Shown in pieces: positions 3,430-12,455 of a DNA stretch of 64,000 nucleotides. This DNA comes from a virus (Duplodnaviria; Heunggongvirae; Uroviricota; Caudoviricetes), in the IMG/VR virus record IMGVR_UViG_3300029702_000002. One strand, 5' to 3'. The stretch's first letter is position 1. Each line of letters opens with the position of its first letter. The notes beneath the pieces are model-generated. The model saw nothing but the letters and a program-made list of their open reading frames with translations. It made no database searches and was not told the origin of the DNA. Made by a program: the position numbers and the translations under genes.

Positions 3430-3516
3430 TGGCGGAGAGTAATGGAATCGAACCATCATCGCTTGCGCAATGGGACGGTTTTCAAGACCGCTTGAGCACC
3501 ATGCTCCCTACTCTCC
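3430..3516 (-). tRNA. tRNA-Ser (anticodon UGA), long variable arm, CCA encoded
   Basis: Manual cloverleaf: acceptor GGAGAGT/ACTCTCC, anticodon loop CUUGAAA, T-loop TTCGATT, 3' GCCA. Confidence 0.85.
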
Positions 3517-3729
3517 AATTGTTGTGGTGCCGGGTGCTTCCCGGTGTCCTTTGGCTGGTTATCCACCGTGGACGGAGCCAATAGTCATCACAAAGGATCA
3601 ATATAACCATTTCCCCGCGTGCGCTTAGCCGCATTCACCACAACGAAAAGAGCACTGTATGACGTTTGCACGGACTTACGCTTCAAACAGGGCAGTCTCG
3701 GCGGTTCTCAATGCTCTTTCCTGTTGTGT

Positions 3730-3805
3730 TGGTGCCGGTTAACGGATTCGAACCGCTGACATCCTGCTTACAAGGCAGGTGCTCTACCAACTGAGCTAAA
3801 CCGGC
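3730..3805 (-). tRNA. tRNA-Thr (anticodon UGU), CCA encoded
   Basis: Acceptor GCCGGTT/AACCGGC, D-arm TAGCTCAGTTGGTAGAGC, anticodon loop CUUGUAA, T-loop TTCGAAT. Confidence 0.9.
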
Positions 3806-3807
3806 AT

Positions 3808-3882
3808 TGGCGATGGTGGGTGGATTCGAACCACCGACCAGTTGGTTAACAGCCAACTGCTCTACCGCTGAGCTACACCATC
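3808..3882 (-). tRNA. tRNA-Asn (anticodon GUU), CCA encoded
   Basis: Acceptor GATGGTG/CACCATC, anticodon stem GTTGG/CCAAC with loop CUGUUAA, T-loop TTCGAAT; 2 nt from tRNA-Thr. Confidence 0.85.
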
Positions 3883-5101: not shown

Positions 5102-5313
5102 ATTAACACTCCTGATTCTACTAATTGCTGTAGCAATACTTTCCCTTTATCAGTTAACTGGTAGTTGGCCGAACACCACGTTTCAGAAACGTTTGCAACC
5201 AACCCTAAACGCTCTAACTTAGCTCGCGTTTTAGGCTTCCAGTACTCAGGGAACTCCGGCCACTTACTTATTTCATGAAGCGTTTCTTTCTCCCGTTTAC
5301 TTAATACGATCAT
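5098..5313 (-). CDS. Hypothetical protein (71 aa)
   Basis: Translationally coupled to ligase stop. Confidence 0.5.
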   Translation of the reverse strand: MIVLSKREKETLHEISKWPEFPEYWKPKTRAKLERLGLVANVSETWCSANYQLTDKGKVLLQQLVESGVLI

Positions 5314-6632
5314 TCTTTATCTCCGATTCGATCTTCGGTATCGCGTAAGCAACGCGGCCATTTCAGTCGTGGGTGGCGTAAGCTGCCGTCCGGTGTTTTC
5401 TCGTGACAATGAACCTCAACAATACGACCACGGTACTTCTCTTTGTTGTTCCAGATCTCGTCCAGATATTTATGCTTAATACCGCTCGCACGAACGATGA
5501 CGCCGTTTTCAAGACGAATAACAATTTTTCCAAGTGTGTTGGCAAAACCAGAGTCCGGGTCGCCCGGCTCAAAGTCGATAATTTCACCATCTTCTGAATC
5601 TTCGTCTTTTAACTTCCACCAGCTGCGGGTACGTTTAAACTCGTAAACAGAGTTCGGATCTTTGCCCATCTCCCCTTCTTCGTTATCGTCCAGGCGTTTC
5701 ATGAAGCGTTCGATGAAGTCTTCGTGGCTATGGATGATATAGAACGGATGCAGGTGAATGTCTTGTGTGTAGCCTTCACTGCGATCGTTTTTGAACAACG
5801 CCACCAGCATAGCCAGGCGCTCTTTCAGCTTCATACCTGTCTTTGCATACTCTTTGGATTTAGCCTGTGCTCGCCATTCCGGTAGGAAGAAGTCGAAAAC
5901 ATGATAAATAGCGCCAATTGCCTGCACGTTCTTTTTGCGCAATGCAGATACGGACTGGTTAAATGAACCGGCAGTTCCTTCACCATCGAAGAAGATGTGT
6001 TTGTGGCCTGAAAGTTTGCCTAATTCGAGCATGGCTGGCTTTAGGTGATCGAGAGACGTGATTGGATTACCAGTACGAGAAAGGAAGTTAACCTCTTCCT
6101 CGTCAACAATAACCTCGCAAATTACTCGCAAACCATCGAGCTTAAGACTGCCAATCATCGGCCATTTTGCTTTAGGATTTGGCTTGAAGGGGTATTTGTC
6201 GCCTTTTTCTTTATACGGTGACGCCAGCTGCACCTCGAATTTCGGAATGGGATTTTCAAAAACCTTGTTGCATAGGCTAATCCCAACGCCAGCTTTCGGG
6301 TCTTTTAAGAGGAAACGACGGAACACGTCCTGCCCATCGGCGCACATTGACGCCACGATAGACTCAACAGCTGCTATTGCTGCGTTCCCCGTTAGCTCGC
6401 GAGAGGCCAGCTTATTCAGTACATCAATGGCTTTTTCGTCACTTGGGATGGACTCACTAAGCGGCTCTGCCACTTTGTATTTCTTTACCCCAAAACGGAT
6501 GAAAGGGTTGAGCATCAATGAAACCATGCTTTGTTCAAAGTCATCCATGTTGGCCAATGCCTCTTTTTTTGCATTGGTTCCCATAGCTTTCATTTCGTCC
6601 AGCTTATGCTTAAGTGCGATCAACTTTTTCAT
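5310..6632 (-). CDS. ATP-dependent DNA ligase
   Basis: Adenylation motif I KLDGLR, FDGE motif and WWKLK motif V in 440-aa ORF. Confidence 0.8.
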   Translation of the reverse strand: MKKLIALKHKLDEMKAMGTNAKKEALANMDDFEQSMVSLMLNPFIRFGVKKYKVAEPLSESIPSDEKAIDVLNKLASRELTGNAAIAAVESIVASMCADGQDVFRRFLLKDPKAGVGISLCNKVFENPIPKFEVQLASPYKEKGDKYPFKPNPKAKWPMIGSLKLDGLRVICEVIVDEEEVNFLSRTGNPITSLDHLKPAMLELGKLSGHKHIFFDGEGTAGSFNQSVSALRKKNVQAIGAIYHVFDFFLPEWRAQAKSKEYAKTGMKLKERLAMLVALFKNDRSEGYTQDIHLHPFYIIHSHEDFIERFMKRLDDNEEGEMGKDPNSVYEFKRTRSWWKLKDEDSEDGEIIDFEPGDPDSGFANTLGKIVIRLENGVIVRASGIKHKYLDEIWNNKEKYRGRIVEVHCHEKTPDGSLRHPRLKWPRCLRDTEDRIGDKE

Positions 6633-7111
6633 TGTTGTTTTGCCTCCATATGTTGATCGATTTGCTCATGTGTTTTTTTTGTTGTTTCTTCAAGCAACGC
6701 CGCATACACGTCAGTGATCGCTGTTTGTGATGTGGCGCTCTTCTTAACCATGCTATTAATCGTTACACTGTCACGTTTTCGTTTTATAGTTCTGGCTTGT
6801 TTATTCCGTTCTTCAACCTCCTTAATGAGCGCGGTCATATCTTCGAAATACAGAGATTCTCCTTTACGAATCTCTTCAACCATCATTTTTAACGCCTTGC
6901 ATTTGCCTGCTTTGATAGCGGTTGCGCACGACTGGAATGAAGTTCGAGGAAGACGGTTTTCTTTGAAGGCAAGAATGGTGTGCTGGCAAACGGAGTAGCT
7001 GCAATATGCCGACTCACCGTTTATCTTTACTTCCTCACAACGAAGTGAATAACCATTATTTCCTGAAATAGAGGGGATTTTTGACAAATCAGCTTTCACA
7101 ACTACCGCCAT
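6629..7111 (-). CDS. Hypothetical protein (160 aa, Cys-rich N-terminus)
   Basis: ORF overlapping ligase start by 4 nt. Confidence 0.5.
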   Translation of the reverse strand: MAVVVKADLSKIPSISGNNGYSLRCEEVKINGESAYCSYSVCQHTILAFKENRLPRTSFQSCATAIKAGKCKALKMMVEEIRKGESLYFEDMTALIKEVEERNKQARTIKRKRDSVTINSMVKKSATSQTAITDVYAALLEETTKKTHEQIDQHMEAKQQ

Positions 7112-7166
7112 AAATAATCTTGTACTTACCTATCGTTATTTGCGTAAAAAACGACGCGCGGAGAGA

Positions 7167-7943
7167 TTACCAACTTCCCCAGCTAATCATCTTGCGCTGA
7201 TCGCTTTCTAAGCGATAAGGGGCAAGAAGCTCTGTGACATGATTGGTGGCGTATGATTTAGCCTCTTGCTTAATCATCGGTAATTCGTTAGCAATCCTGA
7301 CCATCTTCCCAGCAAATTCCGCCATTACGCCATCACAAGCCTTCCCCGCATCAACAACGATATGCACAAGATCCAACTGGCTTTTGCACATATCCCAAAG
7401 AGACGCGTATTCACTCTCTCTGATTACATTTACGGCACTATTAGCCCCTTTATTAATCAAAACTTCCAACAGATTTTTCGGGGTAACGAAATCTGCTTTC
7501 AGAGATAATGTCTTTTCACCACTTATCGAACGCAAGTACTCTTCGTAGTTATTCTTCATCAAACCGCTGCTGCGCATTGCTAGAACTGCTTCTTGAATGG
7601 CCGCTTCAATAGTTTCGTCGTTTGAAAGACAAAAAACGGTATTTGTGTAGATCACTCTGCCATCAAGCCATGCTCCAACCTGCACTTTAAGACTGAGCGG
7701 GTTTTCTTTGCTAATAAAAACAACTAATGCAGAACGCCGTGCACAAGAAGGTTCGCCCCATACGTGTAACTCAACTTTCAGATAAGGCAACCCTGGTAGC
7801 GGGATCTCGTCCATACGAGCAGCGATATGATTCATTGCTGTATTGACGGCCTTTCCAATGATGTCTAGTCGACTGCCCTCGCTGATTTCTAAACCTGTTT
7901 TATCAATGATGTCACAGGCCAATTTCTGAATTTCGTCTTTCAT
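7167..7943 (-). CDS. Hypothetical protein (258 aa)
   Basis: First gene of leftward operon 7943 to 4662. Confidence 0.55.
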   Translation of the reverse strand: MKDEIQKLACDIIDKTGLEISEGSRLDIIGKAVNTAMNHIAARMDEIPLPGLPYLKVELHVWGEPSCARRSALVVFISKENPLSLKVQVGAWLDGRVIYTNTVFCLSNDETIEAAIQEAVLAMRSSGLMKNNYEEYLRSISGEKTLSLKADFVTPKNLLEVLINKGANSAVNVIRESEYASLWDMCKSQLDLVHIVVDAGKACDGVMAEFAGKMVRIANELPMIKQEAKSYATNHVTELLAPYRLESDQRKMISWGSW

Positions 7944-8068
7944 ACCAACTCCTAGCTAACAGATGAAAGTATTCTTACAAAAAACTAAGTATGTATCTAC
8001 TTATCATTTTAGGCGCAATAGTTCCCTATACGAAGATGCCGGGCTTATAGTCTGCCCGGCATTCACCA

Positions 8069-8482
8069 TTAATGAGCTACAGCCTCACTGTTGCACATCT
8101 TTCTGTAGACCTGCTTATAACGCTGTAAGTCATGAGGATCATTAGGTGCCAACGACTTCGATAGGATTTTGTATACCACCCCTTTCGAAAACATGCCCTT
8201 TGGCTTCATTTCGAGTTCAACAACATATGAGTGATAGCCCACGTATGCACCAAAGCCATTTTTGGCGTTTAATTCACCACACACAAAGCCTGTCACACTC
8301 CCATCGTCATGATCAGTCCTGACAAACTTATCTTTCCTAAACATCACCGACGTGGGATCTTTCATGTCATCCGCAATGGCCTGTTGGCCCAGAGTAATAG
8401 CCTTCTCGTCTGTAGGCTTACACCCAACTAATGCAAACAAAGACAATAAAGCACCTGTTAAAATCAGCTTCTTTTTGCTCAT
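8069..8482 (-). CDS. Lipoprotein (137 aa); candidate superinfection-exclusion/lysogenic conversion protein
   Basis: Signal peptide with lipobox LVGC; isolated gene with own hairpin. Confidence 0.6.
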   Translation of the reverse strand: MSKKKLILTGALLSLFALVGCKPTDEKAITLGQQAIADDMKDPTSVMFRKDKFVRTDHDDGSVTGFVCGELNAKNGFGAYVGYHSYVVELEMKPKGMFSKGVVYKILSKSLAPNDPHDLQRYKQVYRKMCNSEAVAH

Positions 8483-8714
8483 TTTGACTTCCCTTTATTT
8501 ATATTTATCGTAGGTATTAGTTAACCAAAACACGAGCAGTGTCACAATAATTCCATAACTTATTATTTCCACTAGTGATTAATACCACATCAACTTTACG
8601 GTTCATAAATTAAATTATCAAAGCTGACAGATTAACTAAATTTAAGTACCCTTTTCGCACACTTGACGCTTGCCGCGTCTAAACTGTTCATCCTATATCA
8701 ACAGAATAAAAAAC

Positions 8715-9860
8715 ATGAAATACATAAAATCTTCTTCGTTGCTGGCATTAACTTTGCTTTTTAGCTCTGGATTCGTTAACGCAGACAATAAACAAACGTT
8801 GATAGAAGCCGCTACCGCAGGTGATACCGCAGCACAAAGTGAGTTAGGGACAAATTATTTGGATGGTGTCAATGGTTTTGATAAGGATGTAGTTGAGGCA
8901 AAGAAGTGGATTGATCTCGCTGCAGAAAAGGGAGATAAAGTAGCATATTATGCACTTGGAGTTATGTACACATTTGGCGAGGGTGTAGATAAAGACCTAA
9001 ATAAAGCTGTTGAGTACTACAAACTTGCGGGGGATGCTCGTGAAGGTAGAGCCTACAACAATCTTGGTGCTATTTATCAAAAGGGGATGCTTGGTAAAGT
9101 AGATCATGCACTCGCCATTAAATACTTCAAACTAGCCTCTGATGTCGGGTATGTTAAAGCAACTTCAGTTCTTGGGGCGTATTACCAATATGGTAAAGGC
9201 GTTAAAAAGAATTATAAAAAGGCTTTTACTTATTACAAAAAGGCGGCAGACCAAGGCAGTTCAGAAGCTATGATAGGATTAGGAATACTATACGATGATG
9301 GGTTAGGCGTTAAACGCAATGATGCAGAAGCAGTTAAGTGGTATAAAAAGGCAGCGGAACTTGGAAACGCCGACGCCATAACCAATCTTGGCATTATGTA
9401 TGAGAATGGGGAAGGTGTAAAAAAGGACTATAAAAAAGCAGCCGACCTTTATCAGACTGCTTGCAATAAAGGAGAAAAAAGAGGCTGTGAATACATTGCT
9501 GAACTGAAAGAAAGCGGAAAATATCGAGTATCTGATTCCAAAGCCAAATCAAAATCAGATGTACAGCGACTTATTGCTAAATCCATTGATAAAGGCGTTA
9601 ACGCAACATTTACCTGGCAGGGTGATGATGCCGTCTTCACCGCTAATGATGGCAAAGTTGACTGCACCTTCTTGAAGGATTTTTCAGAGAAAGGAGGCAA
9701 TCTGGCTACCTCGTTTGTTTGCACCGATAACGTTCAAATCATCCTGAAGCAATTCAGAGATACCAAGAATGCCTACCTCGCGGTAATGACTGACAACTTC
9801 AACACAGAAGTTAAATCATTTTCGGTCAATGTTTACGTGACTAATACTGGTTCAAACTAA
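8715..9860 (+). CDS. Secreted Sel1-repeat (TPR-like) protein
   Basis: Signal peptide MKYIKSSSLLALTLLFSSGFVNA then at least 6 Sel1-type repeats (G-x-x-Y/N-x-x-G-x-G-V-x-K-D/N-x-x-x-A-x-x-W/Y-Y-K-x-A-A); start taken at ATG 8715 inside longer ORF 8670. Confidence 0.7.
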   Translation: MKYIKSSSLLALTLLFSSGFVNADNKQTLIEAATAGDTAAQSELGTNYLDGVNGFDKDVVEAKKWIDLAAEKGDKVAYYALGVMYTFGEGVDKDLNKAVEYYKLAGDAREGRAYNNLGAIYQKGMLGKVDHALAIKYFKLASDVGYVKATSVLGAYYQYGKGVKKNYKKAFTYYKKAADQGSSEAMIGLGILYDDGLGVKRNDAEAVKWYKKAAELGNADAITNLGIMYENGEGVKKDYKKAADLYQTACNKGEKRGCEYIAELKESGKYRVSDSKAKSKSDVQRLIAKSIDKGVNATFTWQGDDAVFTANDGKVDCTFLKDFSEKGGNLATSFVCTDNVQIILKQFRDTKNAYLAVMTDNFNTEVKSFSVNVYVTNTGSN

Positions 9861-11105
9861 TGCTGCTATACCTTTTACCTTGCTTAAAAGTTCAAGCTGT
9901 CGTGAGTAAGGTTTTGCGCAATAGTAGGCTTTGATAATCTGCCCCGGTGTCGCATCGCCGGGGTCGAGTCCTTCCTCGCCCAAACACGCAACTTTGACAT
10001 TAAGACCAATACTTGTGAGTCGCCTGGCTGCGGCCATAGTGTTGCGTATAGCTTGCTTTTCACTATCCCACATCATGATCACATTACGTAATCCACGCGC
10101 CTTGAGCGTCAGGAACGCGCCCAGCTGATCTTCTGCATCCTGAGTGGTGTTGCCAGATAGATGCATCCCGAACGTTCCTATTGGTTCCACGTAATCACGT
10201 AATGTTTCTTCGTCAAAAATAGCTCGTTTGACCCCCATAACATCGAACGCCCCCTCACAGACAACTACCGTCTGTTTGCCGACTGCATTATGGCCGTTGT
10301 AGAGAAACTTACCTGAAGCTGGAAGCTGCATAGGAAAGAGGTAGCGACGTTCTGCTGTACCGGTAATGTCTCGTCCCTGAAATGTCTTCATTACCCCATC
10401 CAGATCGTAAACCGGTATGAGTATTCGCATATCGAATATCTGTCCTTTTACCTGATCTGTATACGGATCTACATAGGCGTGTTTGCCTTCGACGCAGTAT
10501 CGTAGGTCAAAATACTTTGCCATTTCAGGCGATATGTTTCGTTCAACCAGATAGTCTGGAAGACGGCCATCTATAGGCAGTTCGTAATGACGAGGGAGGG
10601 CAACTGGTCCCTCTAACTCGACTGTGCTTGCAAGCACTATCTCTTCTTTCTTTGGTGTCCATCCCTGAGAAAGAAGGGCGTTCTGCACATATTCTTCGAA
10701 CTGTCGCCGTGATTTACCGCTGTAGTGCTTGAGGAACACCAGCTTATTAAATTGTATTTCTTCAGGATGGTCGCCAGCGAAACATTTACCCACACCACTG
10801 GTCAGATTGAAATATACCTTCCAGTTGGAGCTGCCGCATACCGGACACTCCTTGATATTCACTTCACGACCGCGAGCACTCACGCCTCCGCGCCGATAAA
10901 TGATACCTTCAGTGTCCAACCATTGTTCAAAATCTAATTCGGTAATTAGCTCTTTCAGCTCGCTCACGATAATTCCACTTTTAACAGGCAATATTGTGAC
11001 CAACCTAAATGTTGATATAACATAAAGGCTCATGTGTTTTTCTTTTGTGGTTTGGCAAAAGAAAAGTTGTTTCACCAATGAATCAAGCGTGGAGGCGTTC
11101 TCCAC
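9852..11105 (-). CDS. DNA primase (zinc-ribbon + TOPRIM)
   Basis: CPVCGSSNWKVY...C zinc-binding motif and TOPRIM VVVCEGAFDVMG; true start probably internal (GTG near 10967 with GGA site or ATG 11033). Confidence 0.8.
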   Translation of the reverse strand: MENASTLDSLVKQLFFCQTTKEKHMSLYVISTFRLVTILPVKSGIIVSELKELITELDFEQWLDTEGIIYRRGGVSARGREVNIKECPVCGSSNWKVYFNLTSGVGKCFAGDHPEEIQFNKLVFLKHYSGKSRRQFEEYVQNALLSQGWTPKKEEIVLASTVELEGPVALPRHYELPIDGRLPDYLVERNISPEMAKYFDLRYCVEGKHAYVDPYTDQVKGQIFDMRILIPVYDLDGVMKTFQGRDITGTAERRYLFPMQLPASGKFLYNGHNAVGKQTVVVCEGAFDVMGVKRAIFDEETLRDYVEPIGTFGMHLSGNTTQDAEDQLGAFLTLKARGLRNVIMMWDSEKQAIRNTMAAARRLTSIGLNVKVACLGEEGLDPGDATPGQIIKAYYCAKPYSRQLELLSKVKGIAALV

Positions 11106-11114
11106 GCTTATTTT

Positions 11115-12455
11115 TTAGGTAACGTCTAAGATTCGCTCAATGAAGCGCATTTGTTCGAGGTTTTGTTTAACGCGAATGCTGATCCCTCCCTGCTGGTTAC
11201 GTGAACCAGCAAAGTAGAGACGAGCCTCTCCTTTCGCTTCTTCTTCTTCGGTTTTGTTGATCGTTATTACCAGGTCAGCAATACGTACTTTTTCGATGTT
11301 GTCGGCAGCGTGCATCATTGTGGCAACTTCTGACGCGCCACCTTCACGGTTTGTCTGCGATGCCGTGATCCCAGCAACGTTATGCTTGTCATAAAGAGCA
11401 CGTAAATCGGTGTAGATACTACGAATGTTGGCGCGATCATCACGAAGGTCATAACTGGCACGCATCAAATCTGCGTAGTCGACAACAACCATGTCAGGCA
11501 CCATGCCGTTGGCTTTCATGCTGTTAAGCATACGGTCCAGATCTGCCGGTGACATACTTCCTGACGGACGCTCAACCACCCACAAACTACCAATCCCCTT
11601 CGTGGCTCCCAACTCTGCCAACTTACGATGAACCTCATCGCGCCGTTCCACCAGCTTGGACATTTCTGTCTCCGACAATCTTGCATCAAAACGGTCGGAT
11701 AAAATGGTGGTGTGAACCTCCAGCGAGAGATACAGAACATTGTAGCCAGCAAGCGTTGCGTTTATGGAAAACTCACCCATTGCGGTCGATTTGCCGGATT
11801 TAGCGAACCCCATGAAGAGCACCATTTCACGCTTCGCCCAGCCTTTTTGGTACAGCAACCTATCGAGCAGAGGGAGTCCAGTTGTAATGCTGTTTGGCAC
11901 ATACTCCTCTGAAGCCTCATATTCACGCGCTTTCAATCGCTCACTTGCGGAGGTGTAGTAGTCATAGATTCCGGTCGCTTCGTTCGAGCCTATCTGCTGA
12001 ACCTTGGCCATGATTGCCATCGCCCCCTGAAAGTCGCCCTTCTCTTTCAGTTCAGCAGCTTTAATCAGAGCATCATCAAACGCTACACTTTTTGCGAATG
12101 TGGATACCTGGTCAACCATGTACGAGGTATCAGACAATTTTTCTGCAAGGATGCGCTTAAACGCAGCAACAACATCCGGGAAGAGTTCCTCACGGATGGT
12201 CTTATCGCGTTTCGCGCGCTTAAGCATATCCAGAATCGCAGATGAAGAAGGCGCGCTCTTGTACATACGGTAATAGCCCGAAACCATATTAACCAATATG
12301 GCATTGGCCGCATTGGCAAATTGGCTAGGCACAACCAGATCTCCCGCACGAGTAAGAAACTCGTGATCACGACAAAAATATGCCGTCAGTCTGTTCTGGA
12401 AATCTTCATCAAACTCTTCGGACAGCCCGCGTCCTGTATGGCAAAGTTCGGTCAT
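11115..12455 (-). CDS. Replicative DNA helicase (DnaB-like)
   Basis: Walker A GFAKSGKST, Walker B VVVDYADLM, DnaB C-terminal domain architecture. Confidence 0.85.
   Translation of the reverse strand: MTELCHTGRGLSEEFDEDFQNRLTAYFCRDHEFLTRAGDLVVPSQFANAANAILVNMVSGYYRMYKSAPSSSAILDMLKRAKRDKTIREELFPDVVAAFKRILAEKLSDTSYMVDQVSTFAKSVAFDDALIKAAELKEKGDFQGAMAIMAKVQQIGSNEATGIYDYYTSASERLKAREYEASEEYVPNSITTGLPLLDRLLYQKGWAKREMVLFMGFAKSGKSTAMGEFSINATLAGYNVLYLSLEVHTTILSDRFDARLSETEMSKLVERRDEVHRKLAELGATKGIGSLWVVERPSGSMSPADLDRMLNSMKANGMVPDMVVVDYADLMRASYDLRDDRANIRSIYTDLRALYDKHNVAGITASQTNREGGASEVATMMHAADNIEKVRIADLVITINKTEEEEAKGEARLYFAGSRNQQGGISIRVKQNLEQMRFIERILDVT

Follow-up and report, generated by a model that had tools for sequence, protein, structure and literature searches.

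The lipoprotein and Sel1-repeat genes and their insertion site

The 64,000-nucleotide viral stretch IMGVR_UViG_3300029702_000002 (hereafter the window, meaning the whole stretch of DNA analyzed) is, by its sequence relationships, an Escherichia coli SSU5-like phage-plasmid. It carries two divergent genes, one for a predicted lipoprotein and one for a secreted Sel1-repeat protein, between a DnaG-type primase gene and a conserved hypothetical gene of the family phrog_4248. Over a 5-kb query taken from this region (7000-12000), identity was 100% with plasmids including CP057798.1 and 93-97% with the pECOH89 group, and the flanks of the two genes were 93.5-94.5% identical to Escherichia phages Cyrano, CMS-2020a, and PhiR41_1. 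Phage genes are conserved and accessory genes variable in the SSU5 supercommunity, which is the largest group of related phage-plasmids (Pfeifer et al., PMC7969092). A first-pass annotation had proposed the two genes, as isolated units within the replication region, to be envelope-targeted lysogenic-conversion cargo. Both open reading frames (ORFs) were confirmed at its coordinates. The first was found with the lipobox L-V-G-C ending at Cys21 and the second, divergent from it across a 232-bp spacer, with a signal peptide and six PF08238 repeats. The features of the locus are as follows.

8069-8482, minus strand: lipoprotein gene, 137 amino acids (aa), phrog_2320 (ORF list)
8420-8482, minus strand: signal peptide and lipobox L-V-G-C, residues 1-21 (direct sequence reading; family consensus LxGC)
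8237-8281, minus strand: best-conserved motif of the lipoprotein family, CGELNAKNGFGAYVG, residues 68-82 (β2-β3 hairpin of the predicted model)
8035-8065, minus strand: G+C-rich hairpin just past the lipoprotein stop, lacking a U-tract (folding)
8483-8714, between the genes: divergent AT-rich spacer, 232 bp, with back-to-back promoter-like elements (G+C 0.34 in the 400-bp window 8400-8799)
8621 to 8593, minus strand: promoter-like TTGATA-17-TAAAGT facing the lipoprotein gene (consensus promoter scan)
8624-8652, plus strand: promoter-like CTGACA-N17-TACCCT of the Sel1 unit, 91 nt before the ATG (conserved motif)
8715-9860, plus strand: secreted Sel1-repeat protein gene, 381 aa, phrog_8741 (ORF list; Pfam Sel1, six matches; ratio of nonsynonymous to synonymous divergence as given below)
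8715-8783, plus strand: Sec-type signal peptide, residues 1-23, with cleavage after VNA, between MKYIKSSSLLALTLLFSSGFVNA and DNK (direct sequence reading)
8826-9473, plus strand: six Sel1-like 36-aa repeats, residues 38-253, the variable part (Pfam; 108-nt DNA periodicity)
9474-9563, plus strand: Cys-containing capping helix and variable linker, residues 254-283 (least conserved segment, 17-97% identity)
9564-9842, plus strand: C-terminal domain of ~93 aa, residues 284-376, RLIAKSIDKGVNATFTWQGDD...FSVNVYV (conserved; predicted all-β)
8005-9876: accessory segment of ~1.87 kb, missing in empty-site relatives (blastn against phage Cyrano)

Because both genes are flanked by the primase, helicase, phrog_4248, and ligase genes, they lie inside the replication module. 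In blastn comparisons with Cyrano, homology was found at 6500-8004 and 9877-11498, with 39 bp in Cyrano in place of the 1872 bp of the window between these blocks, which bears out their description as isolated units. Such presence or absence between genes that are adjacent in relatives, here Cyrano and most E. coli relatives, is a defining property of morons (Hendrix/Juhala), as is deviating base composition: G+C was 0.34-0.45 in 400-bp windows within the insert, with its minimum in the central spacer, and 0.42-0.51 in the flanks. The true end of the insert is near 9851, with 9852-9876 representing a diverged form of the 3' end of the primase gene; the last eight primase codons read ...SKVKGIAALV-stop in module carriers versus ...SKVLGIKALS-stop in empty-site elements (Cyrano; L001, 7026-7050). 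A perfect 10-nt direct repeat, GCGCAATAGT, is present close to the insert ends (8013-8022 and 9916-9925). It is probably not a target-site duplication, because by our own estimate chance alone would give about two of them in 2 kb, and nothing beyond it was found when target-site duplications or flanking repeats were sought around the insert.

Comparison across SSU5-like phage-plasmids shows that the gap between the primase and phrog_4248 genes (7944-9851) is a cargo hotspot with multiple states.

Empty: Cyrano and an Enterobacter plasmid
Sel1 gene only: E. coli C6 p1 (345 aa) and Enterobacter pMS-37c (417 aa)
Lipoprotein gene only: Cronobacter pCS1 (60% identity, 32 bp downstream of the primase)
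Both genes: the window
Unrelated 321-aa gene (SSU5_041): phage SSU5 itself
Phd/Doc toxin-antitoxin and chaperone-usher fimbrial operon: pYPE3-114k
Apparent deletion scar: pLR-62-2_1

The SSU5_041 product was considered as a Sel1 relative and found to be unrelated to Sel1, and it had no Pfam or PADLOC match. In pLR-62-2_1, a spacer of ~345 bp (L014, 3432-3777) retains both insert ends (16% of the query, in two pieces) and neither gene; this apparent deletion scar implies that the module has been lost as well as gained.

The whole insert was held by 52 of the 378 PLSDB plasmids matching the 5-kb region, with the site empty in most E. coli relatives, and the segment was contained in 62 of 5426 complete E. 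coli genomes, plasmid-borne in every case. Carriers were isolated from the gut, urine, and blood of humans and livestock. A PLSDB census returned the lipoprotein from 74 plasmids, 8 of them from Cronobacter, and the Sel1 C-terminal domain from 91, of which 22 were from Enterobacter, 8 from Citrobacter, and none from Cronobacter. A pairing of the two genes, as the first-pass annotation implied, does not hold up: because other phage-plasmids have one without the other at this site, they are two independent morons that are neighbors here. When a conserved gene pair was sought, distant homologues were without the partner nearby at the loci examined.

Both ORFs matched PHROG families near full length, phrog_2320 for the lipoprotein (1.9e-39) and phrog_8741 for the Sel1 protein (1.7e-206). 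These matches, together with annotation and conservation in the 74 and 91 PLSDB plasmids and purifying selection, place both ORFs beyond chance. Pairwise Nei-Gojobori comparisons with five other carriers gave ratios of nonsynonymous to synonymous divergence (dN/dS) of 0-0.09 for the lipoprotein, 0.13-0.24 for the Sel1 protein, and 0.01-0.06 for the primase, and both cargo genes are therefore under purifying selection. Synonymous divergence differed sharply between adjacent genes of one plasmid pair, which indicates recombinational mosaicism.

An intact Sel1 gene was also found in a chromosome. In Escherichia whittamii (NZ_JACSQI010000004.1; L028, 5600-9100), a 419-aa homologue is situated between ompW-yciCB and yciA-tonB; around it are fragments of IS3-family transposases, a primase pseudogene, and what is left (21 aa) of the lipoprotein gene. 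The locus is a captured phage-plasmid fragment in which the Sel1 gene alone stayed intact, which is taken as a sign of benefit to the host. In the trp-ompW-yciC neighborhood of a second assembly (L018, 7001-7549), a 123-aa C-terminal fragment of the homologue was observed, with a convergent 61-aa ORF overlapping its end, and this suggests decay of the same chromosomal capture.

The promoter-like motif of the Sel1 unit adjoins the minus-strand promoter-like site of the lipoprotein gene. It was missed by the consensus promoter scan because its -10 hexamer fits only 3 of 6 positions. The motif CTGACA-N17-TAnnnT, with its -10 element reading TA(A/C/T)(C/T)CT, precedes the start codon by 88-107 nt in 9 of a diverse set of 13 loci encoding Sel1 proteins with the same C-terminal β domain (Sel1-Cβ), at a chance expectation that we estimate at ~0.001 per 260-nt upstream region. 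Loci sharing it include a chromosomal locus and a non-SSU5 viral contig, with flanks that are otherwise unalignable, and the chromosomal Sel1-Cβ gene of Pseudenterobacter timonensis retains an upstream CTGACA-N17-TAACCT. At the other end of the insert, the 63-nt stretch that includes the hairpin (8010-8072) folds at -22.2 kcal/mol (z -2.5 versus shuffles), and the hairpin is a possible terminator for the lipoprotein gene. The consensus terminator scan was at chance level and did not call it, and an Rfam scan of 7800-10000 gave no match.

Architecture and families of the two proteins

The 137-aa lipoprotein begins MSKKKLILTGALLSLFALVGC, with a basic n-region, a hydrophobic core, and the lipobox L-V-G-C, and it carries Lys at position +2 after Cys21. 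The stretch MSKKKLILTGALLSLFALVG-C21 has the basic and hydrophobic signal and the lipobox ([LVI][ASTVI][GAS]C) of a signal peptidase II substrate, so that lipidation is predicted. Under the Lol rule of E. coli, Lys at +2 leads to outer-membrane sorting and anchoring in the inner leaflet, which implies that the lipoprotein is predicted to be anchored at the outer membrane. Its family, phrog_2320, is a PHROG of unknown function. An exhaustive HMMER search returned 1311 cluster representatives (50% identity clusters) at E<=1e-3, mostly lipoproteins of 100-150 aa with the motif KDPxSAxF...VCGxVNAKNxFGAYxG and near-invariant C68 and C130. Across 68 family members, C68, G69, N72, K74, N75, G78, Y80, and G82 were invariant or near-invariant, and individual scans of this sample revealed a fused SPOR domain in four and SH3 in one, fusions that fit a location in the envelope or at the cell wall. 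The family is widespread in prophages of many Proteobacteria. Homologues separate ogr from int in the P2-like Salmonella phages SEN4 and SEN5, follow ogr where an Enterobacter prophage ends, and in a further prophage sit within the tail module.

An AlphaFold2 model of the lipoprotein (mean confidence score, pLDDT, 89.8) consists of a helix, a four-stranded antiparallel sheet, and a C-terminal helix, and the mature protein of ~116 aa is accordingly predicted to be a generic cystatin/NTF2-like α+β roll. The model places the conserved motif in the β2-β3 hairpin (strands 63-74 and 80-94), the position in which the inhibitory loop of cystatins sits, a similarity that is suggestive only. Resemblance to cystatin, latexin, NTF2-like, and VirB8-like rolls is at the level of the fold only, with 4-17% identity, and unlike cystatins the lipoprotein lacks QxVxG and PW motifs; such resemblance in a predicted model does not establish an inhibitor function. 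Scans of the lipoprotein against Pfam, NCBIfam, and PADLOC gave no match, the family core being without a Pfam or NCBIfam model. Its profile matched no PDB sequence, and Foldseek searches with the model gave nothing at E<=1e-3 in the PDB and uncharacterised phage proteins only in BFVD. A literature search on the family found no characterisation.

The Sel1 protein was assigned to Pfam PF08238 over six stretches (E 8e-53; 175.4 bits versus a cutoff of 30.7). C250 and C258 are invariant, and the C-terminal domain adds two further invariant Cys. The C-terminal domain varies least of all parts of the protein: its identity is 91-100% within the Escherichia alleles and 66-85% between genera, whereas the repeat region ranges over 44-100% (47-100% against other phage-plasmid alleles) and is always below it. 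In the E. coli phage-plasmids at least three repeat alleles (345, 381, and 417 aa) are joined to near-identical C-terminal domains, and the primase and helicase genes next to these three alleles are 97-100% identical. The Sel1 protein is a mosaic of a constant β domain and variable repeats. Modelling of the C-terminal domain with AlphaFold2 gave an all-β but poor structure (pLDDT 50) from a shallow alignment of 11 sequences.

The β domain was found at 5 loci in 185,579 species genomes (E. whittamii, Pantoea, two in Leclercia, and Pseudenterobacter). IMG/VR contributed 24 contigs with the domain, the majority SSU5-like. Besides phage-plasmids, Sel1-Cβ genes occur at prophage ends after tail-fibre genes and at a plain chromosomal site in Pantoea. 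In P. timonensis (L002, 4200-11900), orphan CdiA fragments (Fil_haemagg_2, PT-VENN), transposases, and a NERD-domain gene surround the chromosomal copy. No lipoprotein homologue was found near these prophage-end, Pantoea, and Pseudenterobacter loci. All full-length Sel1-Cβ homologues carry an N-terminal signal peptide, which in two relatives has a lipobox instead (L051 and L029; ...LSVGC and ...LLGC), and these two are probably lipid-anchored. In the prophage loci L004 and L005 (8047-8982), a second Sel1-like protein of 311 aa is encoded ~800 bp downstream of a 422-aa Sel1-Cβ homologue that follows the tail-fibre genes; this shorter protein is ~25-36% identical in the repeats. The nearest solved structures for the repeats are generic: EsiB (4bwr, E 3.5e-72), HcpC (1ouv), LpnE-like proteins, and SEL1L. 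Matches of the Sel1 protein to NCBIfam equivalogs fell far under their cutoffs (MerG 79 of 350 bits, MotX 60 of 330, AlgK 58 of 700, and ExoR 36 of 450). A literature search on Sel1 or lipoprotein cargo in SSU5-like elements found no characterisation.

Proposed role in the host cell envelope and competing explanations

It is very probable that the locus is a hotspot at which two accessory cargo genes, independent of one another, encode exported envelope proteins, and the two proteins probably change the host cell envelope. The label of envelope-targeted lysogenic-conversion cargo is well supported. It is backed by presence and absence at the hotspot, lower G+C, the promoter-like motif, and purifying selection, and further by recurrence in unrelated prophages and the intact Sel1 copy kept in a chromosome. 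The finding is one of ordinary accessory cargo of the phage-moron kind and not of a surprising system. As in lambda bor and lom, HK97-type morons, and P2-like hotspots, a discrete insert of lower G+C separates genes that adjoin each other in relatives; it has a promoter-like element of its own, codes for envelope-targeted products, and has counterparts in unrelated temperate phages. Unlike these, the insert is found within the replication module of a phage-plasmid and not beside an att site or in a late or tail region, and its genes are unrelated in sequence to Bor, Lom, and the other named morons.

The explanation as a whole, once a protective role is included, is evenly balanced between being right and being wrong. 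Under it, one unit would supply a lipoprotein of the outer-membrane type that folds into a compact cystatin/NTF2-like domain and in which a disulfide pair and the hairpin motif are conserved. The other, accompanied by its own promoter-like element, would supply a Sec-exported periplasmic protein made up of a variable six-repeat solenoid, a variable linker, and a conserved β domain. Both proteins would be produced by the lysogen and reach its periplasm by export. There, by binding or blocking envelope targets stoichiometrically, they would alter susceptibility to agents crossing or acting in the envelope. The likeliest such agent, named tentatively, is a superinfecting phage, followed by periplasm-acting interbacterial toxins, which are an unlikely choice. 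In the Sel1 protein, the β domain may bind a conserved partner while the exchangeable repeat solenoid confers variable specificity; the constant-domain/variable-repeat architecture fits an adaptor in which the anchor is fixed and the specificity exchangeable.

Several results count against this explanation. Neither protein was found to be homologous to a known exclusion, defence, or immunity protein. In PADLOC-DB v2 the lipoprotein had no match, and the Sel1 protein had only a spurious 22-bit partial match to the PtuA helical repeats, with no stretch past threshold. A tblastn search with the lipoprotein returned 14 phage records, none of them of the T5, phi80, N15, or HK022 type, and no close solved structure was found for it by PDB profile or Foldseek, its fold being generic. 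The β domain has no Pfam match and no PDB relative by profile at E<=10. The five-carrier dN/dS comparison gave no sign of positive selection across either gene as a whole, which an arms race now under way might produce. The promoter-like motif of the Sel1 gene has a weak -10 element, and the lipoprotein gene, which is read in the same direction as the replication genes and in pCS1 follows the primase at a distance of 32 bp, may simply be co-transcribed with them. The identity of the β domains in E. coli could stem in part from recombination tracts shared with the adjacent primase; the constraint on this domain is nevertheless real, because the same ranking of conservation holds in non-SSU5 contexts.

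More specific roles were weighed against this evidence. In classical superinfection exclusion, the role suggested by the first-pass annotation, the periplasmic face of an outer-membrane receptor such as FhuA, LamB, or OmpC would be masked by the lipoprotein, alone or together with the Sel1 protein, and adsorption or DNA entry would be blocked. Small phage lipoproteins such as Llp of T5 and Cor of phi80 and N15 block outer-membrane receptors, and the lipoprotein of the window is likewise encoded as phage cargo and, like Llp and Cor (the latter also of HK022), is small and bears an outer-membrane sorting signal. It has no detectable sequence or structural similarity to Llp or Cor, however, is larger (a 116-aa mature domain), and belongs to a far broader family with some SPOR/SH3 fusions; its sequence also offers no inferable receptor, and other roles fit equally well, so we regard receptor masking as rather unlikely. 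A similarly low probability is given to the proposal that the two are orphan immunity proteins protecting the lysogen from the periplasm-acting toxins of its neighbors, such as type VI secretion system (T6SS) effectors, some colicins, and contact-dependent inhibition (CDI) toxins. Effectors that target the envelope commonly have immunity proteins that are periplasmic or lipoproteins, and the mosaic of constant domain and variable repeats resembles specificity swapping. One Sel1-Cβ homologue also lies in the Pseudenterobacter island of orphan CdiA-CT modules, but CDI immunity proteins are normally cytoplasmic. The Sel1-repeat protein Sel1E of Klebsiella has been shown experimentally to be a T6SS immunity protein against VgrG4 (PMC7108748); similarity to Sel1-repeat proteins is at the generic repeat level only. 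No effector gene (vgrG, tle, or other toxin) adjoins any of the copies examined, and the confinement of the β domain to 5 of 185,579 species genomes means that no matching widespread toxin is evident.

The remaining proposals rank as less likely than those involving superinfecting phages or toxins. The Sel1 protein might be a host-interaction or colonisation factor like EsiB, LpnE, EnhC, or Hcp, with the lipoprotein an unrelated fitness factor. It shares with EsiB (E. coli c5321), HcpB/HcpC, LpnE/EnhC, and Sel1E a signal peptide and tandem 36-aa Sel1 repeats forming a protein-binding solenoid, and with the Helicobacter Hcp proteins a Cys pair in the last repeat. EsiB of extraintestinal pathogenic E. 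coli is among the best solved matches to its repeats, and carriage by gut, urine, and blood isolates, the fimbrial operon at the same hotspot elsewhere, and retention of the chromosomal copy all accord with such a role. Unlike these proteins it adds the all-β C-terminal domain, of which EsiB and the Hcp proteins have no counterpart, and is phage-borne in a few Enterobacterales; moreover, the similarity is repeat-driven rather than orthology, and a route across the outer membrane is absent despite the signal peptide, which together leave this role distinctly unlikely. That both genes serve the phage's own cycle, through lysis timing, shielding of progeny from adsorption to debris, or envelope remodelling for release, is very unlikely. 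Given its orientation and, in pCS1, its closeness to the primase, the lipoprotein gene may share the expression of the replication genes, and Llp is a precedent for the protection of progeny by lipoproteins that block receptors. Most related phage-plasmids, including the characterised phages Cyrano and SSU5, are nonetheless without both genes, which are therefore dispensable, and an intact Sel1 gene persists in a chromosome without the phage. Least probable is a single cooperating two-component system in which the lipoprotein would anchor or regulate the Sel1 protein. In ~50-60 E. coli phage-plasmids the genes are adjacent and divergent from a shared promoter region, but the Sel1 gene stands alone in C6 p1, pMS-37c, and the Citrobacter and most Enterobacter elements, the lipoprotein gene stands alone in the 8 Cronobacter plasmids, and homologues elsewhere are never near the partner. 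These natural single-gene configurations largely refute the pair.

A wider form of the protective explanation is doubtful; in it the genes would stand for two uncharacterised classes of phage-borne periplasmic effectors, the lipoprotein family being widespread cystatin-fold inhibitors and Sel1-Cβ a modular exclusion or immunity adaptor. The CGxVNAKNxFGAYxG hairpin would then block a periplasmic enzyme of the invader, such as a phage tail-associated lysin or a T6SS cell-wall hydrolase, while the β domain would dock on a conserved envelope component and the Sel1 cassette (345, 381, or 417 aa) would set the invader recognised. Clinical and livestock E. coli, Enterobacter, Salmonella, and Klebsiella commonly harbor SSU5-like phage-plasmids, which are monitored chiefly as vehicles of resistance genes. 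The present analysis defines a cargo hotspot in their replication module and two recurrent, uncharacterised families of envelope-targeted cargo. If it is true that either protein shields lysogens from phages or toxins, this would help to explain the persistence of the element and would affect predictions of host range in phage therapy.

Gene neighborhood

The genes surrounding the insert are as follows.

5310-6632, minus strand: DNA ligase, further downstream (ORF/annotation)
7167-7943, minus strand: left flank, conserved hypothetical gene of the replication module (phrog_4248)
9852-11105, minus strand: right flank, DnaG-type primase (weak Pfam matches to DNAG_N and Toprim_2)
9852-9860: convergent overlap of 9 nt between the 3' ends of the Sel1 and primase genes (ORF coordinates)
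11115-12455, minus strand: DnaB-like helicase, upstream of the primase (ORF/annotation)

An overlap of 8-9 nt between the stops of the Sel1 and primase genes was seen in all carriers examined, including pMS-37c, C6 p1, and pECOH89. The start of the primase is annotated variably in RefSeq relatives, giving proteins of 371, 393, or 394 aa, and the longest ORF in the window begins at GTG and encodes 417 aa. Pfam scores of the primase for DNAG_N and Toprim_2 were slightly under the gathering thresholds. Elsewhere in the window, three tRNA genes are clustered on the minus strand at 3430-3882 (Ser-TGA, Thr-TGT, and Asn-GTT), and the same three are carried by Cyrano.

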